Part shown: in pieces, positions 27,117 to 55,221 of the stretch | Layout of the letters: every line of letters begins with the position of its first letter | How positions within the stretch are numbered: position 1 is the first letter of the stretch | NCBI GenBank assembly: GCA_046314755.1 | Contig: JBKDBG010000017.1 | Coordinates: 7,626 to 71,625, forward strand | Source: Bacteroidota bacterium | Lineage (GTDB): Bacteria; Bacteroidota; Bacteroidia; UKL13-3 | DNA length: 64,000 bases | Direction: 5' to 3' | The notes under the pieces: generated by a model | The model's database searches: none | Told to the model about the DNA's origin: nothing | Seen by the model: only the letters and a program-made list of their open reading frames with translations | Program-made: the position numbers and the translations under genes

Positions 27117-27316
27117 GGGCTATTGAGTTTTTCTTTTCAAATTAAGACAATTTTTTAATTTATTCATAAAAAACGGTTGTTGCTGGGATTCTAAAAACAC
27201 AGGTTCTCCTCAGGCTCAGTAACAAGTTAAATTATACCACGAAAATTACCGGTTACATGATGAGTTGACAATGCGAATATTAAATCCTCACTAAAAAAGA
27301 TTAACAGTTAGGTTAC

Positions 27317-27349
27317 AAAAAAAGCGTCCGCCTCAAAGAGGCGGACGCT
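27317..27349 (-). terminator. Rho-independent terminator of the 3464-aa gene (perfect 11-bp stem)
   Basis: GCGTCCGCCTC (27324-27334), loop AAAG, then GAGGCGGACGC (27339-27349). An A7 run at 27317-27323 on the plus strand becomes a U-run after the hairpin on the minus-strand transcript. It lies 23 nt downstream of the stop at 27372. Confidence 0.7.
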
Positions 27350-27371
27350 TCCCGTCATTTAACATAGAAAA

Positions 27372-38231: not shown

Positions 38232-41200
38232 CTACTCCACCAAGAGTTTCTTTTGAATAGAAGAGTTTATGGTATTAATTTCTACAAAATATAACCCCGG
38301 TTCCAAAGCAGATATATCAATGGTTTTTTGAAGCGCTACAACACATTTCACCCTACCATCAGTTTGTCTCATCGTAACGGTTCCTTGATCCTCCTCTTGT
38401 AAGCCGTCAATATGAATAAATCCTTTTGCCGGATTAGGGTAAATACTTAATGCATGCATTGGGTCTCCATTGTCAACACGCACCACATGGCTGTATTCGC
38501 TTTGGTTAAATTCAATCTTGTTTAATCGATAATACCCTTCTACTAATCTATTGTCATCAAAAACGTATTGTGTTTGGGTGGCTCTGTTTTTTGATTGAAT
38601 ATATCCAATCGTTTCAAATGCTAATCCATCGGCTGAATATTGTACTTCATAGCCTTTCATGTTTTTTTCTTGAGCCGTTGTCCATGATATTACGTTGCCG
38701 AATTCTTTTCGTCTAGCAGAAAAAGAAACTAGCTTTACGGGAAGTGCTTGCGCATTTCCGATTACTAATCTGAAGCGATTGCCTCCGGTTGCAGCATTTG
38801 AATTTTGAATTTGAAAAGTATATTTTGAATGCAACCTCACGTTGGTGATGTTGTTATTAAAAAGGTCAATCAAATACACATCCTTATTGGCTGGAATAGT
38901 ATTGCCCAAATCAAGCTCAATGGTATAACTTCCATTGGATACTGCATTTGTGCTTATCACAAATGTATCTGCTGTACTGTTGTTTAATGCTTGAACCACA
39001 TTGCGTTGAACAAGTTGATGATCAGAAGTAACAAATCCCATGTTGATGTTGCTGTTTAATAACTTCATGGCATCTTCATTAAACACATATGATAAAGAGG
39101 AATTGGGTTTAAAATGAAGCCAGGCGATATCATACTTTGTACTGTCTTGGTACATTTTAATGGATAAGGGATTTTCTTCTGTCTTAAAATATGCAGTTGG
39201 GTTGGTAGAAACCTTGCCGGACTCATTAAAGGTAACACTTGCCCCGGAAGAAGCAGCTTGTACGAAAAAGCCTTGGCCAATAGCAATATGTTGTGAAGAA
39301 GTTCTATTCACGTACATTCCGGTTGAGGCATCCCACACCCAATAGGAGTTTGATACCGACCCCGAAATGCTTAAGGCTGCATAATTAATTTCGCATGGGT
39401 ATGGGTTACCCAATAAATTCCAACCATCATTCGAGGCAGATCCGGTTGATGTATAAGATAAATTAACCGCAACAGCACCTTGGTTAATGTTGCCGAAATA
39501 ATCCATTACCGTATCATTCGGCACAATAGATGCATTTGTTAAGCTATTCGTTTGTGAACGACTTCCTCGGTAAAAAACCAACATGCCCAATCCTTGTCCA
39601 AGAGCATTGTTGGTATGGGTTATGTTCTTCCACCCTCTCCCTCCGGAAGTGTTTTCTTGATAAGTTACAATAGAAGAATTTGGTGTGGCGGCATCAAAGC
39701 CGTTTGAACCACCTCCCGGACCTGTGATCAAAATGTCTTCTTGCAATTGATTAAATGTAAAACCATTAATCGGGCTTGTCACCATTCTCCAGCCCCTTCT
39801 TCCTGAGCCGCCTTGTACAAATCGTTGCACATTTATATTGCCGCTAATGGCTGCACCTGATTGTATCTGAGCAATTCGTCCCGTTGCGGAAGCTGTTGAT
39901 ATCAATACCAAATTTCCATTTGCGTTTAATGTTCCTGCTGTTGGCGTAACTGTTCCTGTTACTTGTACTTCGTTTCCTAATGTTATCGTACTTGATGCGC
40001 GATTTACCGTAAGGTTAACAAGCCTATTGGTTGATCCGAAAGTTGTTTGATCGAAAAACAAAGAAATATTGCCTGTGCTTCCTCCAACATTTATTGATCC
40101 TCCGTTACTGCGTATAAAACCGGAAGTACGAGAAACAGCCCCATTCACCGATAACGTATTTGAACCAATATCAAGTGTAGCCGAACCAATAGTTAACGTA
40201 CCGGAAACCGTAAGGTTATTGCTTAAACTGCTTGTTCCCGAAGGCATGGTATAGTTTTGAAGTTCTGTTGGCAATGTGAAGTTAGAAATGCTTCCACCGT
40301 TAAAAATTAACGACCCGGTGTTGCCAAGCGTTAAGTTGTTTGATGCGTTAAACGCCCCATTTAGCGTAAGCGTACCGTTAATGGTTCGCGATGCATGCAG
40401 CACAGCCCCTGAAGCTCCAACAGAAACATTGTTTGGACCAGAGGAAGATGGCCACTCCATATTATTTGTTGTTTGCACAGAAACACCGGAATATACCAAC
40501 GTGCTATTATTTCCATAAGCAATTGAACCTGCACCGATGATGGTGCCCGAATGCGTTAAAGCTCCATTAATTGTCAACGTAACTCCTGCGTCTACTGTGA
40601 GTGTACCACCTGTATTTATTGTTAGTTCATCAAGGGTCTGGTTGCTGCTTACTCGAAGCGTTCCGCCATTATTAACAGTTACATCATTGGTTGCGGGTAA
40701 GGTTGAGCCCCCACTTCTGTTTAACTGTAAAGTTCCTGCATTAACGGTCGTTAATCCGGTAAATGTATTTTGCGCTGTTAATGTAACCGTGCCTAAACCA
40801 TTTTTATTCACATCATTAATGGTTGACTCATTGTTGGAAATCACACCAGTTACATTGAACGACTCGCTCGTGTTTGCGGTTAAATTTATTGGTATGTTGG
40901 AAACCTCTAACAATGTAAATAAAGCATCCATATTTGCTCCTGAGTTCCTTACATGAATTAATGCGGGAGAAACTCCAGTAGAGCCCGTAAATCTTCTAAT
41001 ATTGTTTCTGTTTGATCCAATAACCAGATTAAACTCTCGGTCAGAAACCACTTCAATATCATAGGTTGTTCCTGATTTGAAATCGGTAAAGTTAGGCATA
41101 TTCGTAGTGGAGAAACCTGCGCCATCACTAAATCGCGCTGTTGATTGTCCGCCTAGAAATTCTATTTTTAATATCGAGTTATTGTCATACCTACCAGCTA

Positions 41201-41612
41201 AAGAGGAGCCCCCATCAAAAATTCCACCGCCAGACTTTATTGAAACACCAATGATGCCATCGTTTACAATTCCCGTTCGCCCGCCACCGTCTTGTCCTGC
41301 AATTCGAATTCTGATTCTTTGTCCGGGCTTTACCGTACGTTGCGTTCCATTCAGTGTGCCGTCTGTTGTGAAAAACCGACCATCAAGTTGTCCTTGTACA
41401 GTACTTCCAAATGAAAATTGAGCAACGCCATTAGTAACAGAAAAGCTACCACTGTTTTCGCTCCACACGTTAGTCCAATTAGAATTCCCTGTGGTATAGT
41501 TTTGGGCAGAAGAATAGTTGTTTGAAATGATAAAAATATAAACCACTAAAGGGATCTTATATTTTAACAAATCGAATCGGTTCTTCACATTGTAAGAAAA
41601 AATCTGGCTCAT
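38232..41612 (-). CDS. T9SS cargo protein with autotransporter-like beta-strand repeats (xGTLTxxxG) and a Por/T9SS C-terminal sorting domain
   Basis: A 1126-aa ORF. The repeat block GTLTVDAGVTLTINGALTHSGTIIGAGS...NGTLTLNGAFNASNNLTLGNTGSLIFNGGSIS resembles passenger-domain (PATR-like) repeats. The C-terminus has the pre-CTD module LPVKLVSFSARRKEFGNVISWTTAQEKNMKGYEV... followed by IYPNPAKGFIHIDGL...GLYFVEINTINSSIQKKLLVE. Confidence 0.8.
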   Translation of the reverse strand: MSQIFSYNVKNRFDLLKYKIPLVVYIFIISNNYSSAQNYTTGNSNWTNVWSENSGSFSVTNGVAQFSFGSTVQGQLDGRFFTTDGTLNGTQRTVKPGQRIRIRIAGQDGGGRTGIVNDGIIGVSIKSGGGIFDGGSSLAGRYDNNSILKIEFLGGQSTARFSDGAGFSTTNMPNFTDFKSGTTYDIEVVSDREFNLVIGSNRNNIRRFTGSTGVSPALIHVRNSGANMDALFTLLEVSNIPINLTANTSESFNVTGVISNNESTINDVNKNGLGTVTLTAQNTFTGLTTVNAGTLQLNRSGGSTLPATNDVTVNNGGTLRVSSNQTLDELTINTGGTLTVDAGVTLTINGALTHSGTIIGAGSIAYGNNSTLVYSGVSVQTTNNMEWPSSSGPNNVSVGASGAVLHASRTINGTLTLNGAFNASNNLTLGNTGSLIFNGGSISNFTLPTELQNYTMPSGTSSLSNNLTVSGTLTIGSATLDIGSNTLSVNGAVSRTSGFIRSNGGSINVGGSTGNISLFFDQTTFGSTNRLVNLTVNRASSTITLGNEVQVTGTVTPTAGTLNANGNLVLISTASATGRIAQIQSGAAISGNINVQRFVQGGSGRRGWRMVTSPINGFTFNQLQEDILITGPGGGSNGFDAATPNSSIVTYQENTSGGRGWKNITHTNNALGQGLGMLVFYRGSRSQTNSLTNASIVPNDTVMDYFGNINQGAVAVNLSYTSTGSASNDGWNLLGNPYPCEINYAALSISGSVSNSYWVWDASTGMYVNRTSSQHIAIGQGFFVQAASSGASVTFNESGKVSTNPTAYFKTEENPLSIKMYQDSTKYDIAWLHFKPNSSLSYVFNEDAMKLLNSNINMGFVTSDHQLVQRNVVQALNNSTADTFVISTNAVSNGSYTIELDLGNTIPANKDVYLIDLFNNNITNVRLHSKYTFQIQNSNAATGGNRFRLVIGNAQALPVKLVSFSARRKEFGNVISWTTAQEKNMKGYEVQYSADGLAFETIGYIQSKNRATQTQYVFDDNRLVEGYYRLNKIEFNQSEYSHVVRVDNGDPMHALSIYPNPAKGFIHIDGLQEEDQGTVTMRQTDGRVKCVVALQKTIDISALEPGLYFVEINTINSSIQKKLLVE

Positions 41613-41685
41613 GCTTTTATAACTTTATTATTAAAATAACAGGCACCTATTAATCTTTTTTTCTAACCTTAATTTAAATCCTATT

Positions 41686-43800
41686 TCATTTCAAAAGTTT
41701 AATTGTTCTCTTTTCACCGTTATTATTTATCGTTAAATAATAAACACCTTCACTCAGTCCCTCTAAATTGCTTAGCACAAGTTTGCGGTCATGGGTCATT
41801 GACCGGCCTTCCTTCATCAACATGCCTTGCACATTATAAATTTCCCAAGCCAATGTGGTTGCCTCGCCTTGAATTCCGCTTATGATAATTTGATCATTAA
41901 ACGGTACCGGATATGCATTCAAATCTTTCCACAACAACTCTTGTTCAACACTTACTGTTTCAGAAAAAGAAACTGCTCCATCATAATCCACTTGTTTGAT
42001 TCGATAATAGGCCGCACCATCCAACACCTCATCAATAAACTGATAGGTGTTGCTTGTTTTGCTGTTACCGGCTCCACGAACAAAGGCAAGGTCTTCAAAG
42101 TATCTACCGTCAATTGACCTTTGAACAACAAACCCTTTGTTATTACTTTCTGAAGCAGTGGTCCATTCTACCAACACGGCACCATTTTTTACTTTAGCGC
42201 CTACGTTTACAAACACAACAGGTAAAGCAACATTGCACGTATTAAATACTGAACCTAACAAAACAGCGGTTGTGTTTATTCTGGTATATGTACGATTAAA
42301 TCCGCCCACACCATTGCTCACTGTGCAAGAGCGTTGGGCGGGATTCGGAAAGGATTCATGATTCGCAGCAACAGAGCTGTCTCCGTTAATGTATTTGTAC
42401 TCAAACGTAGTAGGACAAACATTGTTTACAATGGCTTGGTAGTGATTTGGTGTATTCGGAATCGGAGTCATTCTAATGGCGCCTCCCACCCAAGTTGGTG
42501 TAGTAAAACTTCCCATCACATACACTCTGCCTTGCGGGTCCGGTGTTTGTCCGGTAAGGTCAACCACAAACGTAATGGTGGATGGTGCCGGAGTTGGCGG
42601 ACAAGCGGTTGTCATGCCAAAACATGGTGTTGCTAATGTGCTATCTTTAATCACTACCAACTCTCTGTTTGAAGACGTTGTTGTAAACGAGCTCTCCCAA
42701 TTGGTTACCCCATTACGATGAAAACGAAACTTGTATTGTAGAGCAACTCCGGAATCAATGGTGATTATGCGGCTATATACATTTGTTGTTCCCAAACGAT
42801 TTAATAAAACACCATTTGACCAATTGGTTAGTGCTGCATCAGAACCTGCAACCGTAATGGAATCAATACCTCCGCAAATGTTATTGGTTACATCAACCGA
42901 AAAGGTAAGGTTGAATTTAGCCGTAAATGAAGCAACGTAATTATTTCCCGAATTATCATTTACCTGCAAGCAGCATAAACTTCTGTCGGCTTCTGTTAAT
43001 TGATTCAGTTTGCTTAATGTGAGTGTTGATGTAAACGCATAATACCTGATGCTGGTTCCGCTCGGTTGTGCCGGAATAATTACTTGCCAGTTGGTATTGG
43101 TTGGCGCATTCGTTGATGTGGCTTCTAAAATGGTAGTGCTGTTCGTTGATGCAAAACCGCTTGCAGAAGTATAACGAACAAATACCCTTTCTCCTGTTGA
43201 TGGAGCAGCTGAAGTAGTGACATTAACCACAACACTGTTGTTGGCTTGTATACTTTGGGTAACTGTGTTTAGCGTAACAGGGTTATTTGCAGTGTATCCT
43301 ACATAATACCGTGCATTTGTATTGGTGTAGCCGCAATCGTTAAACACAAAGGTATATCTGCCGGCAGTGCTCATGTTTAAGCCCATGTCGTTTCCGGAGT
43401 TGTATGCTCCTGCTATGTTCACCGAATCTATTCTGGCTTGCGCTACCGAAGTAAATACCCATTTATTTTGAAAGCGATTGGCGGGGGGGCCGGAAATAAA
43501 TAAAAATCCGTTACCACCTCCACCGGCCATGTTACTATTGGTAACATCGCCTCCCGTTGGTTGTGCATTATACGTTTTTACCCATTGCCCACGCCCATCA
43601 GTTGGGTTACCCGAAGTAGTTGTAATTCTTCGGTAAACCGAATTCGCTGATGAAGCTGTGCTGTATCCGTTCATGCTTCCGGTTACTTGAACGGGCTCTC
43701 CCGAAAAGATATTTTGACTATATGTCATCGGAGCTAACACCATACAAAACAACATTGCAATTGTTGCTTTCAACGGTTTTAATTGTAGTATGTTTTTCAT
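41686..43800 (-). CDS. Starch-binding T9SS cargo protein: unknown N-terminal domain, CBM20 plus CBM20-like second domain, pre-CTD module and T9SS CTD
   Basis: A 704-aa ORF. ITVAGSDAALTNWSNGVLLNRLGTTNVYSRIITIDSGVALQYKFRFHRNGVTNWESSFTTTSSNRELVV matches the CBM20 starch-binding pattern (W...G.V.YKF......WE...NR). The second domain, VYVMGSFTTPTWVGGAIRM...EYKYINGDSSVAANHESFPNPAQRSCTVSNGVGGFNRTY, is CBM20-like. The first roughly 170 aa are about 80% identical to the 1326-aa neighbour. The T9SS CTD is at the C-terminus. Confidence 0.8.
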   Translation of the reverse strand: MKNILQLKPLKATIAMLFCMVLAPMTYSQNIFSGEPVQVTGSMNGYSTASSANSVYRRITTTSGNPTDGRGQWVKTYNAQPTGGDVTNSNMAGGGGNGFLFISGPPANRFQNKWVFTSVAQARIDSVNIAGAYNSGNDMGLNMSTAGRYTFVFNDCGYTNTNARYYVGYTANNPVTLNTVTQSIQANNSVVVNVTTSAAPSTGERVFVRYTSASGFASTNSTTILEATSTNAPTNTNWQVIIPAQPSGTSIRYYAFTSTLTLSKLNQLTEADRSLCCLQVNDNSGNNYVASFTAKFNLTFSVDVTNNICGGIDSITVAGSDAALTNWSNGVLLNRLGTTNVYSRIITIDSGVALQYKFRFHRNGVTNWESSFTTTSSNRELVVIKDSTLATPCFGMTTACPPTPAPSTITFVVDLTGQTPDPQGRVYVMGSFTTPTWVGGAIRMTPIPNTPNHYQAIVNNVCPTTFEYKYINGDSSVAANHESFPNPAQRSCTVSNGVGGFNRTYTRINTTAVLLGSVFNTCNVALPVVFVNVGAKVKNGAVLVEWTTASESNNKGFVVQRSIDGRYFEDLAFVRGAGNSKTSNTYQFIDEVLDGAAYYRIKQVDYDGAVSFSETVSVEQELLWKDLNAYPVPFNDQIIISGIQGEATTLAWEIYNVQGMLMKEGRSMTHDRKLVLSNLEGLSEGVYYLTINNNGEKRTIKLLK

Positions 43801-43818
43801 ATGTATTACTAATTATAA

Positions 43819-46800
43819 TTACTGCTTACAAACTTTTATCATTTTTACTCCAAACTCATTTTTCACACGGAGATAATACACGCCTGATGGCAACTCCTCG
43901 GTTGAAATCTGCGCGGATGTTTGTTCTTCGGTATGATAAACCACCACACCAGTAACATTGGTAATGGTAATTGATGTTTGTTCTAATAGTCCTTCAATCA
44001 AAAGTTGGTTGTTGAACGGATTAGGATAAATATTCACTCCGTTTTCATTCACTTTGTTCAAACCTGTACCACTTAAACTTGTATTATACAATGCAGTATC
44101 TGCGCACGGAACATTAGCAATTACGCGTATGGTTCCCAATAAGCCGCTTTCCCATACTACTGTAATTTGTGAAGTTCCTAATCCGCTGATGATTTTTCCG
44201 TTTGAGCTAATCTCCCAAGCATATCCACTGAATGATGAATTTGTTGTTTGGTATAAAACGGTATCGCCTAGCTTAGCTTCTGTAGGGCCAATTACCGGAC
44301 CAACGTTTATCGGCTCACACACGTTTACATTCAATACAGTTTGGTTGCTGCAGGTATCATTTGCTTTCACCTTGATGTTGTTTGTTCCGGCACTTACCCA
44401 TTTTACTGTTATCGTGTTTGTTCCGGCACCACTTTCAATGGTTCCGCCTGTTACTTCCCAAATGGCAGTTGATCCTTGCGGTAAGGAGGTTTGATAGGCT
44501 TGTGTTTCATTTAAGCGTGCAGTGGTTGTTCCCGTAATCGGACCAACCTCAACAGCAATTCGCCTGTTCACTTCAACTGTAGTGCTTACGATACCCCCTC
44601 CAACAGAAACCAAACGAACCAAATAGTTACCCACTACTGTTGGGGCCGGAATAATTAAATTGGTTTGTCCGGATGCATTAAACAATTGAACGGTTCCCGT
44701 ATTAATCGGCTGAGCGAAACTTCCATTCGCATCAGAAATTTCAACACGGAATAATGAATCCGTATACGCTGAATTTCTTAGTGTGTATTGAACTGTTGTA
44801 ATTCCGTTACCACAAACAACAGCAGGAGATGGATTTGAAAGTTGAAGCTCTTCTTGTTTGCTGCATTTGTTAAATAAAAATTCAACTTGTGTTAATGCCG
44901 CAATATTTCTAATGAGTTGTCGATTAAACCCACCTAAGCCATTGCTAACCACACAGCCTCTTTCATTCGCATTTGGAAAAGTTTCCGCATTATTCACCAC
45001 ACTGCTATCTCCATTAATAAATTTATATAACACGGTATCTACGCAAACCTGTGTGGTGATTTCAAACAATCCGGGTTGACCAGAAACCTGCTGCATTCGC
45101 ATAGGTCCGCCCATCCATTGCGGTTGTGTGAAATTTCCCATTACATACACTCTTCCTTGTGCGTCAGGAATTACTTGCGATACATCAACCCTAAAGCGAA
45201 CAAGCGAAGGAGGATTACTCGGAGCACAATTCCCTGTTTCGCCAAAACATACCGGACCAATTGTGGCAGATGAGGTGATGGTAAACTCTCTGTTTTTGCT
45301 TGTAGTTGCAAAATCGCTTTCCCAAACTGTTGTTCCCGAGCGATGTGTTCTAAATTTATATTGAAGCGCCAATCCGGAATCCAGCAACAGTGTATCTGTA
45401 TAAATATTGGTTCCTGTTATTTGGTGCAGTCTTCTACTGCCTGCCCAATTACCTAATATCACATTGTTGCCGGTGATGGTTACTGAATCAGGAAGCGCAC
45501 ATTTTTGCTTTTCAAGATTCACCTGAAATACCACTTGGTATTTAGGAATAATTGGAGCAGGAGAGCAACTATCGAACATAAATTCTAATACAACAGGTAA
45601 GCTGTCGTTGCGAAGGAGTCTTCTGTTAAACCCTCCGCCCGATGCCGGTACTACACAAGTTCTTTGAGAAGCGGAAGGAAACGTTTCTGCATTTACAATA
45701 ACACTGCTATCTCCATTTATAAATTTGTACAATACCGTATCGGCACAAACAGAAACCATTCTTTCAAAAACACCCGGACGACCTGCTACAGGAAATAATC
45801 GTAATGCACCTTGTTGCCATTGTGGTGTGGTGAAATTTCCCATCACATAAATTCTTCCTTGGGCATTTGGAACACCTCTGCTTAAATCAACCCTAAACGT
45901 AATGTTTGATGGTGCCGGAAGAGGAGAACAATTGTTTAGTTGATTAAAACAAACTACCTCAAGTGTGGTGTCGGTGTTAACCGTAAGTTGTCGGTTTCCA
46001 CTTGTTGATGTAAAATTAGATTCCCATGTTATTGCTCCGTTTGTATGCCAACGAAATTTATACTGAATGGCTAAGGCCGAATCAAAACTGATGGTGTCAC
46101 TGTAAATATTGCTTATTCCTTCTTGTTTAAGTCGCACCGAATTCGACCAATTGCCTAACATGACGTGATTGCCTGTAATGGTTACCGAATCAAATCCGGC
46201 ACACGCCAATCGCTCCATGTTTACCCTAAATCGAACTGTTTTTTTACTGATTACAGGAGCAACCATACAACTGTCAAATAAGTACTCTAATGTTTGTGCT
46301 TGCGTACCGTTTCTTACAAAAATTCGGTTAAACCCTCCGGTTCCATTTGATACCGTGCATGAACGTTGCGAAGGAGAAGGAAATGTTTCTGCATTTGCTG
46401 CCACACTGCTGTCTCCATTCATAAATTTATAAATCACCGTGTCGGCACAAACAGAAACCGTTCTTTCAAAAACACCCGGACGACCTGCTACAGGAAATAA
46501 TCGTAATGCCCCTTGTTGCCATTGTGGTGTGGTGAAATTTCCCATCACATAAATTCTTCCTTGGGCATTTGGAACACCTCTGCTTAAATCAACCCTAAAC
46601 GTAACTTGTGATGGTGGCGGAAATGAGGGGCAAGTTTGTTGTTGACCAAAACAAAAAGCAAGAAGTGACGTATCTTTTTGAATGGTAATTTCTCGGTTGC
46701 CACTTACGGTTGAAAAGTTTGCTTCCCATTGTGTTGTTCCATTTCGGTGATACCTGAATTTAAATTGAACCGCAGCACCTGAATCAAGCAACAAGGTATC

Positions 46801-47799
46801 CGAGTGAATGGTGCCGTTGCTATTCATCCTACGCCATCCCGACCAGTTGCCCAATACCATTTGATTACCAACTAAAGTCACCGAGTCAAAAGGCACACAA
46901 GCAAATGCGGCCATATCAACATTAAACACCACATTGTATTTTGGAACAAAACTGTGTTGATAGTTTAGTCCGTTGTTGTCTAAAACTTGTAAAGCACATA
47001 AAGATTTTCCGGTTTCGTTTAGTGCATTTAACTGTGTTTGTATTAGGGTTGAAGTAAAGAAATAATACGTAACTGTACTGCCGGCATTCATAGCAGGTAA
47101 TGTGGCTTGCCATAAAGTATCGGTAGGATTATTTAAAGAGGAACATGCCAAAACCGTACTGCTTGATGTTGCTCCAAAATTTGAATTCAATGTGTATCTT
47201 ACAAACACCCTTTCATTAGGTGACGGAGTAGTGTTTGTTCTCAACTGCAATTGAAGAGTGTTGTTGGCCAACACTTGCATGCTTGCATTACTTACTTGCA
47301 CCGGCTGATTTGGGGTATAACCCACATAAAACTGGGCATTGGTTGCTGTGTAACCACAGTCGTTAAACACAAACGTATACCTTCCGGCAGTGCTCATGTT
47401 TAAGCCCATATCTTGACCGGAATTATATGCTGAAATTCCGTTGATAGAATCTAAGCGTGCTTGTCCGATTCCCGCAAAAACCCATTTGTTTTGAAAGCGA
47501 CTAGCAGAAGGTCCGGATATAAATAAAAATCCGTTACCTCCTCCACCGGCCATGTTTGTGTTTGTTACATCACCACCACTTGGTTGTGCATTATAGGTTT
47601 TTACCCATTGGCCTCTGCCATCGGTTGGGTTACCCGCATTTACCGACACCCTTCTGTAGGTGGTGTTAAATGCACTTCCCGTATTATAGTTATTCATGGA
47701 GCCAACCACTTGAACCGGCTCTCCGGAAAAAATATTCTGGGCATTTGTGCCTGTGGCAAAAAGACCCAAGAACACTCCACAAAGGATGCTTTTTTTCAT
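43819..47799 (-). CDS. Starch-binding T9SS cargo protein with four tandem (CBM20 + CBM20-like) units, two Ig-like domains and a T9SS CTD
   Basis: A 1326-aa ORF. There are four roughly 234-aa repeats, each containing a CBM20 (for example VTLVGNQMVLGNWSGWRRMNSNGTIHSDTLLLDSGAAVQFKFRYHRNGTTQWEANFSTVSGNREITI) and a second module (FRVDLSRGVPNAQGRIYVMGNFTTPQWQQGALRL...YKFMNGDSS...FPSPSQRSCTVSNGTGGFNR). The C-terminus YPNPFNNQLLIEGL...GVYYLRVKNEFGVKMIKVCKQ is a T9SS CTD. The gene starts 5 bp after the stop of the 932-aa amylase gene. Confidence 0.8.
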   Translation of the reverse strand: MKKSILCGVFLGLFATGTNAQNIFSGEPVQVVGSMNNYNTGSAFNTTYRRVSVNAGNPTDGRGQWVKTYNAQPSGGDVTNTNMAGGGGNGFLFISGPSASRFQNKWVFAGIGQARLDSINGISAYNSGQDMGLNMSTAGRYTFVFNDCGYTATNAQFYVGYTPNQPVQVSNASMQVLANNTLQLQLRTNTTPSPNERVFVRYTLNSNFGATSSSTVLACSSLNNPTDTLWQATLPAMNAGSTVTYYFFTSTLIQTQLNALNETGKSLCALQVLDNNGLNYQHSFVPKYNVVFNVDMAAFACVPFDSVTLVGNQMVLGNWSGWRRMNSNGTIHSDTLLLDSGAAVQFKFRYHRNGTTQWEANFSTVSGNREITIQKDTSLLAFCFGQQQTCPSFPPPSQVTFRVDLSRGVPNAQGRIYVMGNFTTPQWQQGALRLFPVAGRPGVFERTVSVCADTVIYKFMNGDSSVAANAETFPSPSQRSCTVSNGTGGFNRIFVRNGTQAQTLEYLFDSCMVAPVISKKTVRFRVNMERLACAGFDSVTITGNHVMLGNWSNSVRLKQEGISNIYSDTISFDSALAIQYKFRWHTNGAITWESNFTSTSGNRQLTVNTDTTLEVVCFNQLNNCSPLPAPSNITFRVDLSRGVPNAQGRIYVMGNFTTPQWQQGALRLFPVAGRPGVFERMVSVCADTVLYKFINGDSSVIVNAETFPSASQRTCVVPASGGGFNRRLLRNDSLPVVLEFMFDSCSPAPIIPKYQVVFQVNLEKQKCALPDSVTITGNNVILGNWAGSRRLHQITGTNIYTDTLLLDSGLALQYKFRTHRSGTTVWESDFATTSKNREFTITSSATIGPVCFGETGNCAPSNPPSLVRFRVDVSQVIPDAQGRVYVMGNFTQPQWMGGPMRMQQVSGQPGLFEITTQVCVDTVLYKFINGDSSVVNNAETFPNANERGCVVSNGLGGFNRQLIRNIAALTQVEFLFNKCSKQEELQLSNPSPAVVCGNGITTVQYTLRNSAYTDSLFRVEISDANGSFAQPINTGTVQLFNASGQTNLIIPAPTVVGNYLVRLVSVGGGIVSTTVEVNRRIAVEVGPITGTTTARLNETQAYQTSLPQGSTAIWEVTGGTIESGAGTNTITVKWVSAGTNNIKVKANDTCSNQTVLNVNVCEPINVGPVIGPTEAKLGDTVLYQTTNSSFSGYAWEISSNGKIISGLGTSQITVVWESGLLGTIRVIANVPCADTALYNTSLSGTGLNKVNENGVNIYPNPFNNQLLIEGLLEQTSITITNVTGVVVYHTEEQTSAQISTEELPSGVYYLRVKNEFGVKMIKVCKQ
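45737..45903. repeat. Near-identical roughly 165-bp direct repeat, copy A (copy B at 46438-46605), inside the 1326-aa gene
   Basis: CGGCACAAACAGAAACC(A/G)TTCTTTCAAAAACACCCGGACGACCTGCTACAGGAAATAATCGTAATGC(A/C)CCTTGTTGCCATTGTGGTGTGGTGAAATTTCCCATCACATAAATTCTTCCTTGGGCATTTGGAACACCTCTGCTTAAATCAACCCTAAACGTAA occurs twice, about 702 bp apart, with only about 2 mismatches. The flanks are similar at roughly 85% identity. Confidence 0.85.
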
Positions 47800-47804
47800 A
47801 CGTG

Positions 47805-50603
47805 TTAATGTTTTACCAATACTTTCTTCACTTCACTTGCGTGCGTATATTCAATTCTTAATAAATACATTCCATTGGTTACTTCACTTACATTGATATC
47901 GGCTATGTTATTATCAATTTCAGTTGATATGATTTCTTTTCCTGATAAATCAAGAAGGCTGATTTTTTTGATAGGCTGTTTGAGTGATTCAATAATTATT
48001 TTTTCATTGGCCGGGTTTGGAAACACATTGCTCATTCCGGTCATTGGCATTTCGGTTAAACCCACACTGCCGCTTGGTTTTGTGGTAAGTTTCACATCAG
48101 TAAACACCACATAATCTCCCGGTTGTAAGCTAATAGTTTGCCCCACATTGGTTACATTAATTGAATCACCGGTAATGTAATTATACCACCATCCGGTATG
48201 CTGAAAACCCGGAGTTAAATTAAGAGGAACCACATCAAAATTTCCTGCAATTACGGTATTCATGCTGTCGTGATTCACCTTAAGTACTTTACCTGTTCCG
48301 GCTACATCGTAGATGTAGTTATCCGATGAAAAAGAAACGTGTTGTTTCAACTTGGCAATCATACCAACTTGAGTAAGGGCAGCAACACGATCGGCATTGT
48401 TTAAGTAATCCCAGCGAAAGGGTTTATTGCCGGTTCTTCCATTGGTGTTAATAGAAACTTCGTATCCCAACTCTCCTCCTTGCCATAACATTTTTGGGCC
48501 TTTTAATGGTAACAACAATGCATGATAAGCAGCCACACGTTTTAAGGCATTGCTTAAGTTTTTTGTGCTATATCCGCCACTTGCATTGCCATAGGTTAAA
48601 GTAGAAAACATGATACGTTCTTCATCATGGCTTTCGGCATAGGTAATTAAGTTTGGAAAATTCCAGCCTCTGGCTTTGTAATTACCCCAACTTAAATTTG
48701 CTTTTGAATTGTTATAACCCATTGTTGCTTCTGCGTAAGCTTCAGTCATTTTACCCCACAACATAAAACCCATGTTTGCCAATACGGTTTCTTCCGAGTT
48801 ATCACCCAAATGCTCCAATATTAAATACGCATCAGGCGCATACTTAATAATTTCATTGCGTATTCTATTCCAAATATCTACTCGAGACTGATCGTAGGCA
48901 CTCCAGGCCCCAATATCACCAAGGGTGTTTTTTTGTGTGAATCCTTTTGATAAATCAAAACGATAACCATCAACTTTATACTCCGTCAACCAAAATTTAA
49001 TCACACGATCCGTAAATTCTTTTACTACTTGTGCTTCGTGGTTGTAGTCATAACCCACACCAAAAGGATGTTTATCTACTTGATTAAACCAAGGGTTTTG
49101 TGCCGTTGGCTGTCCGTACTGACCTGCCGTTGGATCAAAGTACATTCTTACCTGAGGATTTTGGCCAAACGAATGGTTTAATGCAATATCTAAAACAACC
49201 GCTATTCCGTTGGCATGACACTCATCTACGAACGCTTTAAAATCATTTTTTGTTCCGTAGTATTTGTCAATTGCGAAATAAAACATTGGATTGTAGCCCC
49301 AACTTTCATTCCCTTCAAACTCCATAATAGGCATAATTTTTACGCAGTTGGCACCAACTCTTTTTAAATAACTGATGGTGTCTTTTAGGGTTTTAAAATC
49401 ATGTTTGCCAATAAAATCACGAACCAATAATTCATAAATTACCAGTTTATCATTTAATGGCTTTACAAAGTTGTTTGTTTTCCAAGTATAAGCAGGTTCA
49501 CCTATTTGCAGTACCGAAACAACTTCAGTTGTTTTTCCAACCGGATACGGTTTTAAATTCGGATATGTTTCAGGAGTAATCCAACCATCATTCCAAGGAT
49601 CAAGAACTTTTTCGGCATATACATCAGCCACTTTTAATTGCACATCATCAATTGAATATTGAAAAGCATATTCTACTCCTTTTGTTAATCCTGATATGGT
49701 AATCCAATATCGGCTTCCGTCAGGAGTACGCTTCATTAAATAGTTGGGATGAAATTCCCAATTATTAAAATCACCAATTACATAAACAAAGTTTTTAAAC
49801 GGAGCAAAAAGCTGTAAGGTTACGGAAGAATCATTAATATAATTTATTCCATCAATAACACCTGATGGTGATGTTGCAATAGCAGGGTTTAATCTTGGCA
49901 TGATGTAAGACGTATCATATGATTTTGTGCCATTTAAATTTCCTTCCAACACCAAATTAACGCGCGTATTTCCAAAACCCAACGCAGTGTTTTTATACGT
50001 TAATGAGGTGGAATTATTCGCTTGTGCAACTTGCACCCCATTGGCAAACAAGGTTAATGTTGAAGGGGCAGAAGCTCCGGCAGAAACAGTGAACGAATCG
50101 GTTGGGTTAAAAAAACTGCCTTTTTGTGGGACGTTTATTTTCGCTTGATAAGTACCTTGGTTAATGTCTACAAAAATATCTCCGCCACCACTTGTTTTTC
50201 CTGTTTTGCTTCCATCGGCATTTCTGAACACAAACGCTAATCTTAACACGGTTTCATTGGCAGGAATTCCATAAAACGAGCGAATATTTCCAATTGTTAA
50301 AGTATATCTGTTGGTGTTACCTATTCGTGTTAGTAAAGCTTTAGGCAAATTGGTTGTCCATGGCGCAATTACATACCTCCAATCTGAACCGGAAGTGCTG
50401 GCAGAGGTAATTACTCCCGAATGTGCATAAATGGTACTCTGACCCAATAAAGCAGCGTTGCCTAATGAGGCATCAAAAGTAATAACAACATTATTATCAT
50501 TGGCCGTTGCAAACGCAGGGCTAATAGAAATAAGTTGTGCAGAAACACGGTAAGTAACCGAAAAAAATAATACAAAGGCTATTAATTTATTTTTCATATG
50601 CAT
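47805..50603 (-). CDS. GH13 alpha-amylase family enzyme with an N-terminal CBM48-like domain and a T9SS C-terminal sorting domain
   Basis: A 932-aa ORF. All four GH13 conserved regions are present: VVLDIALNHS (I), VDGYRFDLSKGF (II), LILEHLGD (III) and YAESHDEERI (IV). FVYVIGDFNNWEF...RYWITISGLTKGVEYAFQYSID fits the CBM48/E-set pattern. The C-terminus VFPNPANEKIIIESL...GMYLLRIEYTHASEVKKVLVKH is a T9SS CTD. Confidence 0.9.
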   Translation of the reverse strand: MHMKNKLIAFVLFFSVTYRVSAQLISISPAFATANDNNVVITFDASLGNAALLGQSTIYAHSGVITSASTSGSDWRYVIAPWTTNLPKALLTRIGNTNRYTLTIGNIRSFYGIPANETVLRLAFVFRNADGSKTGKTSGGGDIFVDINQGTYQAKINVPQKGSFFNPTDSFTVSAGASAPSTLTLFANGVQVAQANNSTSLTYKNTALGFGNTRVNLVLEGNLNGTKSYDTSYIMPRLNPAIATSPSGVIDGINYINDSSVTLQLFAPFKNFVYVIGDFNNWEFHPNYLMKRTPDGSRYWITISGLTKGVEYAFQYSIDDVQLKVADVYAEKVLDPWNDGWITPETYPNLKPYPVGKTTEVVSVLQIGEPAYTWKTNNFVKPLNDKLVIYELLVRDFIGKHDFKTLKDTISYLKRVGANCVKIMPIMEFEGNESWGYNPMFYFAIDKYYGTKNDFKAFVDECHANGIAVVLDIALNHSFGQNPQVRMYFDPTAGQYGQPTAQNPWFNQVDKHPFGVGYDYNHEAQVVKEFTDRVIKFWLTEYKVDGYRFDLSKGFTQKNTLGDIGAWSAYDQSRVDIWNRIRNEIIKYAPDAYLILEHLGDNSEETVLANMGFMLWGKMTEAYAEATMGYNNSKANLSWGNYKARGWNFPNLITYAESHDEERIMFSTLTYGNASGGYSTKNLSNALKRVAAYHALLLPLKGPKMLWQGGELGYEVSINTNGRTGNKPFRWDYLNNADRVAALTQVGMIAKLKQHVSFSSDNYIYDVAGTGKVLKVNHDSMNTVIAGNFDVVPLNLTPGFQHTGWWYNYITGDSINVTNVGQTISLQPGDYVVFTDVKLTTKPSGSVGLTEMPMTGMSNVFPNPANEKIIIESLKQPIKKISLLDLSGKEIISTEIDNNIADINVSEVTNGMYLLRIEYTHASEVKKVLVKH

Positions 50604-50882
50604 GGTTTTGTTTACTGTTTTAAAAAAGCAGTAAGTGTAAAATTAACACTTATTCACAGAAACACAAACTTTTGTGATGATTTCATCAATAAATTATAAG
50701 GTCTTTTTGCTTGTTTTATAAAATGGCAATCACCCTTTTTGTTGAACACAGATTAAACAGCGGCTACAGAAAAGGGATTATTAGAATTTTGCTTGGTTCA
50801 AATGCTGGGCAACCATTCTTTATGAATAATTTCCATGAGGGATATCTGGTGATGATTGTCAACAACAAAGGACCTGCACTTA

Positions 50883-53588
50883 CTATTGTTTTTGTACCTT
50901 TTTACGGAAAATGGTTTTATTCTTGTACTCCAACTCCAACACATACAAACCGTCCGGCAAATGTTTTGTGTGAAGCAGATACCCGTCTCCGTTTTCTTGA
51001 ACATCAACGGTTACTAATTTGCCAACCATATTATACAGCCGCAATTTGGATGAAGGAGGAACATTCGCAATTTGCAGCGCATCACCAAACGGATGAGGGA
51101 AAAACAATACTTTATGATTTTCTTCTTCCAACAAACCGGTGCTATTGCTCACCACAAATCGCCATTGGTTTGACGAGTTAAATCCTGCAAAAGGGTTGTT
51201 AGCCAAATCTTTTACAGCCGCTTGATCAACGAGTACATATACTTCGACTCCCGGAGTAAACCCTGCATGGTTAATCGTAAGTACACTCCCTGAAACCAAT
51301 ACATTACTTGATGCAACCGGATAGGTATACTTTAATTCGTTATTTTCAAAAATTTGTATGTTACCCGTTCCTTTGATAATGTTTTCTGAAAAGGTAATGC
51401 TTAGCGCTGCAACACTCGAAACATTTAAAGCCGCATTTAAAGGACTTAAACTGCTTACCGTTGGCGCTTGCGTATCTGATTGGCCATTGCCCAACGCTGT
51501 TTTATAATCTTGGCTGCCATTATTATCCCACGTACCATTTCCATTGTGAAAGGCTGCACAAAAATTAACTCTTGCATTAGCAGGAACCATAACCGTTGTG
51601 GTCCAAACGTTGCCGGATTTTACCATGGCCTTATCTTGAACTCCGCCCACGGTCCAATTGTCCCAACTGTAATGCATCAACACTTGTGACTGGCTGGCCA
51701 AACTACCCGAATAAGTGATGGTTAAGTTTTGTGTGGGTGCCGGATTTTGAGGAACAAAAGTTACGGCTGAACTTCCTCCGCCACCACCCGAACTGCTGTT
51801 TTGAAAAAACCCTTCACCTAAAGCGCCAATCAACCCCGGGCCATTTAATAGGTATACTCCGGCACTTCCGGGTTGAACGACAAAGGATAAATTTCCGCTG
51901 CTTACTGTAATGGCGTGTCCGGTAACAGCATCTCGATAGGTACCATTGCTTAATCCCGAAAAATTAAACGTAACCGCACCATCTTTTGCTAAGCCAACAG
52001 CAACTTCGCTTGACCCAAATTTTCGCACAAAGCCCACTCCGTTTGAACTGTTTGTTCCATCCCAACGCCAAGACCCTTTTTGCAAAGCAGGAATCGCCTT
52101 TCTAATGGCATTCAGTTTTCTGATGTGTTTGTAAATTTGGTGATTGGGGGCATTGGCAATTTCGTTTCCAAAATAAGCTCGGCCGGTATTGTCAATGGAA
52201 AAATTGATGTCGTTAGAGGAATGAATATCAGCATAGGCTCCTTTTTTAAATTGCACTTCGGTGCCATAATATACACAAGGCAACCCTCTCCAAAAAAACA
52301 TAAAGTTTAATGCGGCTGCCAGGTTCTGCGCGTCACCATCATAACGTTTGTTCCAATCGTTATTCGGACCAAAATCATGGTTATCCAAAAACATCACATT
52401 GGTTGATGGGTCAGCATATAAATCATCATAAAGTGCCGCTGATTTTACGTTTGAAAACGCTTCGCCTTTACCAAACAAATGAAAGGTTCCCATGGCAAAA
52501 AAATCGAGAACAGCGATATTACTTGAAGGAGAGTTTTTAGTTTGTCCGCGCCAAGTATACCAATGTGGATTTATTTCTTCTATTTGATGTAACTCATGTC
52601 GCTTTTGTGCCACTTCAGCAAATACCATTAGGTTTGGATTAACTTGTCGAAAGCGATCAACAAAATACAATACATCTCTTTTAGGCATGTGTTTTACGGC
52701 ATCTAAACGCATACCATCAATTCCCATATCGATAAATGTTTTGTATGCATTAAACAAGTAATTACGAACACTGTCTCCACCCGTTAGTAAATCGGGAGTA
52801 TCTCCGGCTAATGCACGGTAATATAAATTGGTAGTATCATCATATCCTTGCGCAAACCCATTACCCGACTTGTTGTACCAAGCAGCATCGCTGGTGGTTA
52901 CATAACTTTCCATGCTTGGCCAGTTAAATGCGGCAAGGTTTTGGTTAAATGGAGGCGGCATTTTAGCCAGGTTAGATCTACTCCATATTTTACCATCCAT
53001 TGGGTTGGGCGTGAGCCCGTCATATTGCCACAATGGATTATCTTGCAATGGCTGACCCATTAAGTTTTTGCCCCATGGCTGGTTCGGGTCGGTGTTGTAT
53101 TTAATTTCTGCTTTGCCTTTAATGCCAAATCTTCCGGCATGGTTTAATACAACATCCAAAAACACCTTTATCCCCTTGGCGTGAGCTGAATCAATAAGAT
53201 TTTTAAACGTGTAGCCGGGTGATTCTAAACGCGGGTCTACTTTGGTAAAATCCCATGCATGATAACCATGGTAATCAAGCGGGCTTCTATTTTGTACAAT
53301 GGGCGTAATCCAAATGGCGGTAAAACCCATGTCTTTGATATAATCTAATTTTTGAACCAGCCCCTTAAAATCGCCTTTCCAAGTCACATCATTTACGCCT
53401 GCATAATTAGCATTATTAGGATTACCGGGGAAATAAGAACACCATTCGGTTGGACGGTTATTGGTTGGATCACCATCGAAAAAACGGGTGGTGAGTAAAA
53501 AGTAAATGGTTTCCTCTCTGATATCGGATTGAGGATACACAGAAAAAGATATTGTAAGCAAACAAAGCGCTGTAAATAATTTTCTCAT
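50883..53588 (-). CDS. GH13 alpha-amylase with a C-terminal CBM25/26-like starch-binding domain, an Ig-like domain and a T9SS C-terminal sorting domain
   Basis: A 901-aa ORF with signal peptide MRKLFTALCLLTISFSVYPQ. The GH13 regions are FLDVVLNHAG (I), GIDGMRLDAVKHMP (II), MVFAEVAQ (III) and FLDNHDFG (IV). LTITYSGSLASQSQVLMHYSWDNWT...GNGTWDNNGSQDYK resembles the Bacillus-type starch-binding modules. The C-terminus FFPHPFGDALQIANV...GLYVLELEYKNKTIFRKKVQKQ is a T9SS CTD. Confidence 0.9.
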   Translation of the reverse strand: MRKLFTALCLLTISFSVYPQSDIREETIYFLLTTRFFDGDPTNNRPTEWCSYFPGNPNNANYAGVNDVTWKGDFKGLVQKLDYIKDMGFTAIWITPIVQNRSPLDYHGYHAWDFTKVDPRLESPGYTFKNLIDSAHAKGIKVFLDVVLNHAGRFGIKGKAEIKYNTDPNQPWGKNLMGQPLQDNPLWQYDGLTPNPMDGKIWSRSNLAKMPPPFNQNLAAFNWPSMESYVTTSDAAWYNKSGNGFAQGYDDTTNLYYRALAGDTPDLLTGGDSVRNYLFNAYKTFIDMGIDGMRLDAVKHMPKRDVLYFVDRFRQVNPNLMVFAEVAQKRHELHQIEEINPHWYTWRGQTKNSPSSNIAVLDFFAMGTFHLFGKGEAFSNVKSAALYDDLYADPSTNVMFLDNHDFGPNNDWNKRYDGDAQNLAAALNFMFFWRGLPCVYYGTEVQFKKGAYADIHSSNDINFSIDNTGRAYFGNEIANAPNHQIYKHIRKLNAIRKAIPALQKGSWRWDGTNSSNGVGFVRKFGSSEVAVGLAKDGAVTFNFSGLSNGTYRDAVTGHAITVSSGNLSFVVQPGSAGVYLLNGPGLIGALGEGFFQNSSSGGGGGSSAVTFVPQNPAPTQNLTITYSGSLASQSQVLMHYSWDNWTVGGVQDKAMVKSGNVWTTTVMVPANARVNFCAAFHNGNGTWDNNGSQDYKTALGNGQSDTQAPTVSSLSPLNAALNVSSVAALSITFSENIIKGTGNIQIFENNELKYTYPVASSNVLVSGSVLTINHAGFTPGVEVYVLVDQAAVKDLANNPFAGFNSSNQWRFVVSNSTGLLEEENHKVLFFPHPFGDALQIANVPPSSKLRLYNMVGKLVTVDVQENGDGYLLHTKHLPDGLYVLELEYKNKTIFRKKVQKQ

Positions 53589-53995: not shown

Positions 53996-55216
53996 TTACG
54001 GGTTAAAAACCCCGGTTATAACCGGAAAATAATTGGTAAAGAGTATCTTTTTATTCGGTAATGGCTCAATATCAATAAAGCTAACCGGTGTTTTGTATTC
54101 AACATAGTTTACTGTGTTTAAATCGCTTGTTATGTAAATTGTTTTTTCAAACCTAAAAGCAAAATAAAAACCATTAACCGTTACGTATACATCGGGTATT
54201 GACCCGGAAGAATGTTTGGGTATTAAGCCAATTTTCACCCAGTTGTTTATGCCATTGATAGATGAATAGATATTTTGATTACCAACCAAATAGTGTTTGC
54301 CGTTTATTTTGGTTACAAACGTTGCCGGCTCCGGCAAACTAAATGTGTTATATGTGGTTGATGTATCAGTTGCAAAGGCATATCCATTACTCCCACCATA
54401 GGCAATAAAACCATTGGCTTGTTGTATAATGTTTGTTGCCCTTATGTTATAAAATAATTCTTCATTCCCATTGGGTAAAATACGTCCTATTGCAAACGCA
54501 TCATTGCTGTAAACCAATGTTTTTCTAAACAGTGCAAGTTTGGAAGCACCAAACTGAAGTGGAATAGTTTGTGCTTGGTTTGTGCTCGTATTCAACACAA
54601 TTGCCCTTGCTTGCGTTCTAATAAAAAGCAGTTCTCCCTCATCACTTATTCCATCTAAAAAGGCTCCCGTTCTTATGGCTGAATAATCTATGGGCTCAAG
54701 TTGATTGGTGTTTAAGTTGAATAAAAATCCGTTTGCTGAATAATACTTACCTGCATTAAAATCAAATACCGATGTAAGACCCAATGGACTTGCTATTAAA
54801 AAATCATACGTTACCGGTTTGCTTACCACATTAACCGTAAGATAAGCCGGCTTAGCTCTTTTTGTTCCGTTTAAAAATAATTGCACGGCTACTTTTATTG
54901 TGCCGGGTTTTTGTGGCGCAACAAACCGAATTGAAGGATGAATTCCTGCGAAAGAATAGGCAGAATCGTTGGTGTTATTTTCTACAACAGTTACTGTATA
55001 ATTGGTTTCGTAATCAAAGCCCGGATCAAAGGGTTGGTTATCTTTTAATATAGTTACATCTACTTCTGATTCTTCTCCGGCATTAACCGAAATCTCCGTT
55101 TGGCTCAGTTGAAGTTGAAACACATCAGGACCCTGCTTTTCCACCTCCTCCGTTTTTTTACATGAGGCAGCAATCAATAATAGGCTAAAAAATACAAAAT
55201 AATAATGGCGTTTCAT
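53996..55216 (-). CDS. Lipoprotein with an N-terminal Ig-like domain and a BNR/Ycf48-like beta-propeller region
   Basis: A 406-aa ORF. The N-terminus MKRHYYFVFFSLLLIAASCKK is a lipoprotein signal with Cys. It carries S.NG..NW-type Asp-box-like motifs (YSSINGINNWVKI). It is paralogous in layout to the adjacent 434-aa protein. Confidence 0.7.
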   Translation of the reverse strand: MKRHYYFVFFSLLLIAASCKKTEEVEKQGPDVFQLQLSQTEISVNAGEESEVDVTILKDNQPFDPGFDYETNYTVTVVENNTNDSAYSFAGIHPSIRFVAPQKPGTIKVAVQLFLNGTKRAKPAYLTVNVVSKPVTYDFLIASPLGLTSVFDFNAGKYYSANGFLFNLNTNQLEPIDYSAIRTGAFLDGISDEGELLFIRTQARAIVLNTSTNQAQTIPLQFGASKLALFRKTLVYSNDAFAIGRILPNGNEELFYNIRATNIIQQANGFIAYGGSNGYAFATDTSTTYNTFSLPEPATFVTKINGKHYLVGNQNIYSSINGINNWVKIGLIPKHSSGSIPDVYVTVNGFYFAFRFEKTIYITSDLNTVNYVEYKTPVSFIDIEPLPNKKILFTNYFPVITGVFNP

Positions 55217-55221
55217 GTTGT

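Follow-up and report, generated by a model that had tools for sequence, protein, structure and literature searches.

Two adjoining minus-strand open reading frames (ORFs) in a 64,000-nt stretch of DNA from a Bacteroidota bacterium (contig JBKDBG010000017.1; the whole stretch is called the window here) encode proteins of 704 amino acids (aa; 41686-43800) and 1326 aa (43819-47799), and the 5′ ends of the two genes are similar segments. Both proteins continue into arrays of CBM20-type carbohydrate-binding modules (CBMs), and the locus raises the question of what the N-terminal segment is, whether it serves starch binding, and how the two copies came to be so alike. A sequence-only reading had proposed an unrecognised domain of about 170 aa that binds carbohydrate or attaches the proteins to the surface, and that was duplicated recently or homogenised by gene conversion. 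We find instead that the segment is the first part of a conserved two-domain module, carried chiefly at the N-terminus of Bacteroidota proteins with a type IX secretion system (T9SS) sorting domain, that this module is a putative ligand-binding head, and that the two genes are ancient paralogues.

An orphan domain shared by two adjacent proteins

Direct alignment of the two mature N-terminal domains (N-domains) gave 115 identical residues out of 150 (77%) and a score of 637, compared with -11 +/- 13 for shuffled sequences, establishing that both proteins carry a common N-terminal domain. The sequence-only reading had put protein identity at about 80% and had named identity below 50% as the level that would count against it; our values of 77% and, when codon-aligned, 79% lie well above that level, and the peptide and DNA motifs it had quoted were found in both segments. 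Its figure of about 85% for the underlying DNA was too high, with 71% identity over the mature domain and 65% of all columns across the quoted 510-nt segments. The best ungapped 300 nt reached 76% (43277-43576 versus 47300-47599), and DNA identity of 83-90% occurred only in single 60-nt intervals.

The extent of the similarity also had to be redrawn. Residues 1-170 had been described as colinear and shared, which holds for the mature part; the leaders, of 20 residues in the 1326-aa protein and 28 in the 704-aa protein, are signal peptides that have diverged (30% identity), and the shared domain begins at Gln21 and Gln29, respectively. At the other end there is no 170-aa limit, as the proteins are colinear across 519 aa at 56% identity (BLASTP E = 0.0). 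Along this alignment identity is 79% in the mature N-domain and 44-55% in the next three domains, and the N-domain is thus the best-conserved part of a longer colinear similarity.

We searched for a known family to which the N-domain could belong. Pfam returned nothing over residues 21-170 of the window copy, even at E<=10, and no recurrent family when 76 family N-domains were scanned singly; the lone CBM53 signal in an N-domain was sub-threshold (E 8e-5) and came from a distant member, P0160. No NCBIfam model matched the N-domain, and neither did any PDB sequence profile (best hmmsearch E 0.088 for the N-domain and 0.12 for the domain that follows it). Profile comparison by hhalign gave a probability of 2.1% against CBM20 (PF00686), which the downstream modules do match, 1.3% against the CBM48 (PF02922) of the adjacent GH13 enzyme, 0.3% against the GH13 N-terminal region, 0.2% against the CBM53 of the other GH13 enzyme, and about 2% or less against both the divergent CBM20-like unit and the second domain described below. 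Pfam BACON was absent from the window proteins and from 55 + 76 family sequences, and our literature searches found no description of the N-domain. The earlier statement that no CBM or enzyme family can be assigned therefore stands, and the alternative it had allowed for, a known fold such as a GH13 N-domain, finds no support in the hhalign values. On these comparisons, the N-domain is an orphan that would represent a new domain family without a database name.

Several candidate identities were rejected. CBM20, CBM48 and a GH13 N-domain fail on the hhalign probabilities (<=2.1%) and the lack of a Pfam match; a propeptide is rejected since most members have no catalytic domain; BACON fails for want of a Pfam match, and an AA13-like lytic polysaccharide monooxygenase (LPMO) because position +1 is Gln and no His occurs among the invariant or near-invariant columns. 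Conservation across the 76 sequences reaches 90% or more at about 47 of the roughly 150 N-domain positions; D40, R42, Q44, W45, N84, K85, W86, D110, D127 and Y130 are among them.

The conserved unit is a two-domain module

Local hidden Markov models (HMMs) detected another conserved domain, about 105-115 aa long, directly after the N-domain in 198 of 200 members, the set comprising family members of at least 330 aa. Because this domain follows so regularly, the conserved unit is not a 170-aa domain but a two-domain module of about 275 aa, made of the N-domain (about 150 aa) and a CBM-like second domain (about 115 aa). AlphaFold2 modelled residues 21-295 as two all-beta domains with high scores (pLDDT 96.3, pTM 0.92; 86 full-length members in the alignment), whereas the N-domain alone with a 26-row fragment alignment reached a pLDDT of only 39. 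In the two-domain model the N-domain has about ten strands and the second beta-sandwich ends in two short helices. The predicted N-domain fold is a beta-sandwich, as in CBMs, and in this respect the model agrees with the CBM-like character suggested earlier.

Foldseek searches with the whole-module model found no PDB match at E<=1e-3 (TMq <=0.30) and no significant neighbour in BFVD. The weak matches, which apply to the whole module and are not resolved by domain, were a Big_2-CBM56 structure (7quz, E 1.8e-3, the best in the PDB), CBM21 (7qfa, TMt 0.50), the GlgE N-domain and cytokine-receptor fibronectin pairs. These are tandem beta-sandwiches of a generic kind, and small domains of CBM or fn3 type. 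The second domain gave sub-threshold matches to Pfam CBM_56 (E 5.8e-4 to 2e-3; 18.7-20.5 bits against a cut-off of 27); among 35 members CBM_56 was matched in three and CBM53 in three, always under the family cut-offs, and an hhalign comparison with CBM53 from the neighbouring GH13 returned a probability of 31.7% (E 5e-4). The second domain thus appears to resemble CBM25/53/56 weakly.

The module is usually the N-terminal part of predicted T9SS cargo

An exhaustive HMMER search across 1.84 billion representatives returned 142 proteins (clusters), 73 of them at E<=1e-30, and nearly all matches begin at about residue 5-30. A genome scan found 78 loci, of which 70 have Bacteroidota record titles (counted from the listed record names), with Chitinophagaceae, Flavobacterium, Saprospiraceae, Segetibacter, Ferruginibacter and Runella among the taxa. 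The module family is therefore small and almost restricted to Bacteroidota. Three loci on contigs labelled Acidobacteriota, Pyrinomonadales and Blastocatellaceae (L022, L035 and L040) encode proteins of 380-445 aa whose module is 66-72% identical to the window N-domain; in L035 (= P0029) a CarboxypepD_reg-like domain follows the module in place of a T9SS sorting domain. These copies could be cross-phylum transfers or the product of mis-binning.

Among 194 unique members, 175 have the domain beginning no further in than residue 60, and its first residue is Gln in 170 of 179 N-terminal copies. Both window proteins have Gln at the mature N-terminus (codons 47737-47739 and 43714-43716). We conclude that the module normally begins at the signal-peptidase cleavage site, with Gln at +1. 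In Bacteroidetes, signal peptidase I substrates follow a Q-rule in which the Gln at +1 is converted to pyroglutamate (PMC5837995), and the onset of the module fits this rule.

What follows the module varies widely, with members ranging from 341 to 4460 aa. A Pfam scan of 55 strong members found Por_Secre_tail in 39, a MopE-type motif in 12, PKD_6 in nine, CBM_20 in five and SprB repeats in two, with no catalytic family, and in distant members fn3/Ig arrays occur together with a T9SS sorting domain. The shortest members with a sorting domain (six proteins of 458-475 aa) are made up of the module, some 100 residues without an assignment, and the sorting domain. The module is an autonomous, strongly constrained and usually N-terminal passenger of predicted type A T9SS cargo, mounted on interchangeable stalks. 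Several genomes, among them CANGVA01 (loci L001 and L069), CAMBSD01 (L010 and L036) and JAYTDC01 (L031 and L044), hold paralogues whose stalks differ greatly, with a span of about 700 to over 3500 aa. This suggests that one head is reused on different stalks inside a single genome.

The window proteins and their surroundings

The features of the locus are as follows.

47740..47799, minus strand: signal peptide of the 1326-aa protein (residues 1-20, ending in TNA before QNIF), a variable hydrophobic leader, with family conservation from Gln21.
47290..47739, minus strand: N-domain of the 1326-aa protein (residues 21-170), an orphan predicted beta-sandwich; local family HMM E 3.9e-70, AlphaFold2 model with about 10 strands at pLDDT >92.
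46924..47289, minus strand: second domain of the 1326-aa protein (residues 171-292), a predicted beta-sandwich followed by two short helices; HMM E 6.3e-33.
44857..46920, minus strand: six CBM20-type modules of the 1326-aa protein (residues 294-981), in which three Pfam CBM20 (CBM_20 E 4.8e-23, matched in three stretches) take turns with as many divergent CBM20-like units.
43822..44031, minus strand: type A T9SS C-terminal sorting domain of the 1326-aa protein (residues 1257-1326); PF18962 E 4.6e-11, TIGR04183 E 4.7e-13.
43717..43800, minus strand: signal peptide of the 704-aa protein (residues 1-28, ending in TYS before QNIF), a basic and hydrophobic leader.
43270..43716, minus strand: N-domain of the 704-aa protein (residues 29-177); HMM E 3.2e-68, 77-79% aa identity to the 1326-aa copy.
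42925..43269, minus strand: second domain of the 704-aa protein (residues 178-292); HMM E 5e-37, 46% identical to the 1326-aa copy.
42229..42897, minus strand: one CBM20 and one divergent CBM20-like unit of the 704-aa protein (residues 302-524); Pfam CBM_20 E 1.4e-8, local HMMs.
41689..41913, minus strand: type A T9SS C-terminal sorting domain of the 704-aa protein (residues 630-704); PF18962 E 1.1e-9, TIGR04183 E 9.1e-9.
47805..53588, minus strand: a pair of GH13 enzymes of the alpha-amylase family (932 aa and 901 aa) lying upstream, both of which have CBMs as well as a T9SS sorting domain; Pfam matches to Alpha-amylase (E 1.3e-21 and 4.2e-42), CBM_48, CBM53/CBM_25 and Por_Secre_tail.

The leaders of both window proteins are basic and hydrophobic and end TNA/Q and TYS/Q, as expected of N-terminal Sec signal peptides, which were judged from leader character and the Gln onset of family conservation. 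Pfam recognised CBM20, PKD_6 and the T9SS sorting domain in the two proteins; the type A sorting domain was the sole named match in NCBIfam and was above threshold in both (TIGR04183, 35.2 and 48.9 bits against a cut-off of 23; PF18962, 38.9 and 43.3 bits against a cut-off of 27). Because both proteins carry this sorting domain, the surface-attachment role that had been proposed for the N-domain is unnecessary.

The CBM20 arrays are longer than Pfam alone indicates. A unit of about 115 aa follows each Pfam-recognised CBM20 and has no Pfam match, yet it is CBM20-type by hhalign (99.7%), which raises the count of CBM20-type modules from three to six in the 1326-aa protein and to two in the 704-aa protein. 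The 1326-aa gene shows an intragenic period of 702 nt at 44962-46665, each period comprising one CBM20 and one divergent unit, and the repeat copies 45664-45963 and 46366-46665 are 87% identical in DNA, above the value for the N-domain pair. Its orthologues carry one, two or three such pairs (L004, 860 aa; L001, 1092 aa; L003, 1326 aa), so the length of the array changes over time.

Elsewhere in the window, the two genes lie in a minus-strand run of five consecutive genes at 38232-53588 (1126, 704, 1326, 932 and 901 aa), all ending in a type A T9SS sorting domain. Further upstream, ORFs of 406 aa and 434 aa (53996-56526) had no NCBIfam match. The region before the sorting domain of the 704-aa protein (41914-42228, residues ~525-629) resembles by tblastn the C-termini of the 1126-aa ORF (38232-41612), a 3464-aa ORF (27372-37766) and many family members, which suggests that it may be a common module without a Pfam name. 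Three giant minus-strand ORFs (2497, 3464 and 1922 aa) occupy 19623-37766 and 58167-63935, and a scan of the window with the local HMMs found the N-terminal module in none of them.

A putative ligand-binding head and its alternatives

We read the module, with moderate confidence, as a putative ligand-binding head on secreted or surface proteins that is fused at this locus to a starch-binding array without being specific for starch. The secretion signals of T9SS cargo are C-terminal and type A sorting domains use the PorV shuttle; in F. johnsoniae the amylase AmyB and the adhesin RemA, which has a lectin domain, are type A cargo (PMC12618676). Because the C-terminus would carry both the secretion and the anchoring signal, the module would lie at the distal end of a protein that is secreted or attached to the surface, where it may recognise a ligand, either a glycan or another conserved target. 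At the window locus this head would be joined to two or six CBM20-type modules and co-encoded with two GH13 enzymes predicted to be T9SS-secreted, and the pair may be non-catalytic alpha-glucan capture proteins to which the head adds a putative second binding specificity. The module may bind carbohydrate. We put forward only tentatively the narrower proposal that the module is a new carbohydrate-binding or adhesin-head family on T9SS surface proteins of freshwater and soil Bacteroidota with one conserved target, for example an algal, cyanobacterial or particulate glycan, and that it gives the starch-capture proteins here a second specificity.

Several points weigh against a head of this kind. 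Adhesin binding tips are usually variable; this one is unusually conserved, which could reflect a conserved partner on the producing cell or a structural role instead. It is architecture alone that suggests the head role, and the terminal position is not obligatory, as the module is internal in 15 of 194 members and present in two copies in three. Genomic context gives no functional support: no neighbour cluster is common to more than six of the 78 loci, the Pfam families of 111 flanking proteins are heterogeneous, and no neighbour is conserved across the family. Surface display is also not assured, as type A cargo may be released rather than anchored (PMC12618676).

It has to be considered that the module has no ligand and acts as a structural cap or spacer, or as an aid to folding or secretion of long T9SS cargo, in the manner discussed for BACON. 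The very heterogeneous carrier proteins, the inconsistent genomic context and the generic beta-sandwich fold would all suit such a role, and high conservation would suit contact with a cellular component that is itself conserved. Low conservation is the usual condition of spacers, however, and here about one third of positions are near-invariant, many of them polar and aromatic; the shortest members have little passenger other than the module for it to assist; and T9SS cargo is directed by C-terminal signals (PMC12618676). We consider a role of this kind unlikely.

In line with the sequence-only reading, the module, or the N-domain by itself, could be a new module for binding starch or alpha-glucan that adds to the CBM20 array. 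CBM20 is the only recognised glycan-binding partner family, and fusion to CBM20-type modules occurs in close and distant subfamilies alike; the weak CBM53 and CBM_56 signals in the second domain, the sub-threshold CBM53 match in the N-domain of one distant member, and the presence of starch-related beta-sandwiches (CBM21 and the GlgE N-domain) among the best weak Foldseek matches all point the same way. However, such fusions account for only 27 of 200 members, leaving 173 without a CBM20-type module, and GH13 (amylase) neighbours occur at only five of 78 loci, the five orthologous ones, leaving 73 without. In addition, the N-domain has no profile similarity to CBM20, CBM48 or CBM53 (probability about 2% or less), every CBM signal falls under the curated thresholds, and Foldseek gave nothing at E<=1e-3. 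The starch-binding context is thus not general to the domain, and we judge a starch-specific module quite improbable.

Very unlikely, finally, is a small undescribed enzyme in the N-domain, for example an oxidative or lytic polysaccharide-active one comparable to AA13 LPMO-CBM20 fusions: the position after the signal peptide and ahead of CBM20 is also that of AA13 LPMOs, invariant Asp, Arg, Asn and Tyr residues are present and 12 of 55 members have a MopE-type metal motif, but the module also occurs internally or duplicated, it has no similarity to any catalytic family, and a histidine-brace enzyme is excluded because the mature N-terminus is Gln rather than His and no His is conserved.

Comparison with known systems

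BACON (Bacteroidetes-Associated Carbohydrate-binding Often N-terminal; PF13004/PF19190) is a Bacteroidota-restricted beta-sandwich, usually the first domain of the mature chain in multidomain proteins that are secreted or lie on the surface and in many cases are glycan-related. It was first proposed to bind carbohydrate from its position alone, and another role, of the cap, spacer or secretion-aid type, was proposed later. The module described here shares the predicted fold, the lineage and the position, but it is a domain pair of about 275 aa, is far more conserved and has no Pfam BACON match; moreover, BACON is typically found on lipoproteins encoded in polysaccharide utilisation loci, whereas the window proteins are predicted T9SS cargo.

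SusE and SusF of Bacteroides are non-catalytic proteins encoded beside alpha-amylase genes, with an N-terminal Ig-like beta-sandwich and tandem starch-binding modules. The window proteins are likewise probably non-catalytic, lie next to GH13 genes and have a predicted N-terminal beta-sandwich followed by tandem starch-binding modules. The topology is reversed, however, because SusE/F are lipoproteins anchored N-terminally and the window proteins have a C-terminal T9SS sorting domain. Pfam SusE had no match in the window proteins, and the families most frequent in a scan of 111 neighbour proteins included none of SusC/SusD type. By analogy, the pair looks like a T9SS-based counterpart of SusE/F-type starch capture.

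The likeness to CBM25, CBM53 and CBM56 lies in the second domain (CBM_56 and CBM53 matches, hhalign 32%), and the best PDB match of the whole module by Foldseek is 7quz (E 1.8e-3); all of these signals are sub-threshold and the N-domain shows none (0.2%). The AA13 LPMO with CBM20 has a beta-sandwich right after the signal peptide and then CBM20, but the module lacks the His that would form the copper histidine brace at the N-terminus and has Gln at +1 in 170 of 179 copies. RemA of Flavobacterium johnsoniae has the same order of signal peptide, binding domain, repetitive stalk and type A PorV-shuttle sorting domain, binding being putative for the window head; the RemA domain is of a recognised lectin family and the head here is unannotated, and the likeness drawn is one of architecture. 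RemA can be both surface-exposed and released (PMC12618676). Taken as analogies, the module would act most like BACON or the N-terminal domains of SusE/F, which are accessory N-terminal beta-sandwiches on glycan-related surface proteins of Bacteroidota. Lectin heads on T9SS adhesins, that of RemA for instance, are a further likeness, and on sequence the module was placed in none of the families compared.

The tandem genes are ancient paralogues

By the Nei-Gojobori method, the N-domains of the two window paralogues differ by a nonsynonymous divergence (dN) of 0.19 and a synonymous divergence (dS) of 1.69 (dN/dS ~0.11), compared with dN 0.45-0.64 and dS 2.7-3.1 for the other domains, so that synonymous sites are near saturation. 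Three other metagenome-assembled genomes in the genome scan have this tandem pair as well, ordered identically behind a GH13 gene, with orthologous pairs of 1092 + 703 aa (L001), 1326 + 702 aa (L003) and 860 + 703 aa (L004); L015 has kept both GH13 genes and the short paralogue only, and L002 has a GH13 neighbour. In the remainder of the protein, identity is 43-48% between paralogues and 56-89% between orthologues, with a tree that separates the sequences cleanly by orthology; same-genome paralogues pair neither in the N-domain tree nor in that of the rest of the protein. Based on the near-saturated dS, the separate orthologues and the lack of same-genome pairing, we conclude that the window genes are ancient tandem paralogues that have been separately maintained, and that their N-domains are kept similar by strong purifying selection.

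Recent duplication or gene conversion between the tandem genes, the explanation offered earlier, is largely refuted and retains next to no probability: the N-domain does have a lower dS than the other domains and a higher third-position identity (50% versus 37-40%), and the N-domain of the 1326-aa protein is as close to its paralogue (77%) as to its orthologues (77-79%), but its dS is still above 1, 51 of 112 identical residues are encoded by different codons, the longest exact run of DNA that is shared measures 26 nt, the N-domain of the 704-aa protein is nearer to its orthologues (81-85%) than to its 1326-aa neighbour (77%), and same-genome paralogues do not group in the trees, the sequences outside the N-domain dividing cleanly by orthology.

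What the module means for the locus and the family

The analysis clarifies the locus as two old paralogues that combine one head with two or six CBM20-type modules beside two GH13 enzymes predicted to be secreted. The module itself is a new, unannotated domain family within a familiar class, useful for annotation and unsurprising in kind. Its unusual conservation suggests that it may have a single shared target across lineages that include Chitinophagaceae, Flavobacterium, Saprospiraceae and Runella. If the module does bind a defined ligand, it would constitute a new binding-module family, and it would give access to some 140 clusters of large surface proteins from Bacteroidota whose only annotation at present is "T9SS sorting domain-containing protein".

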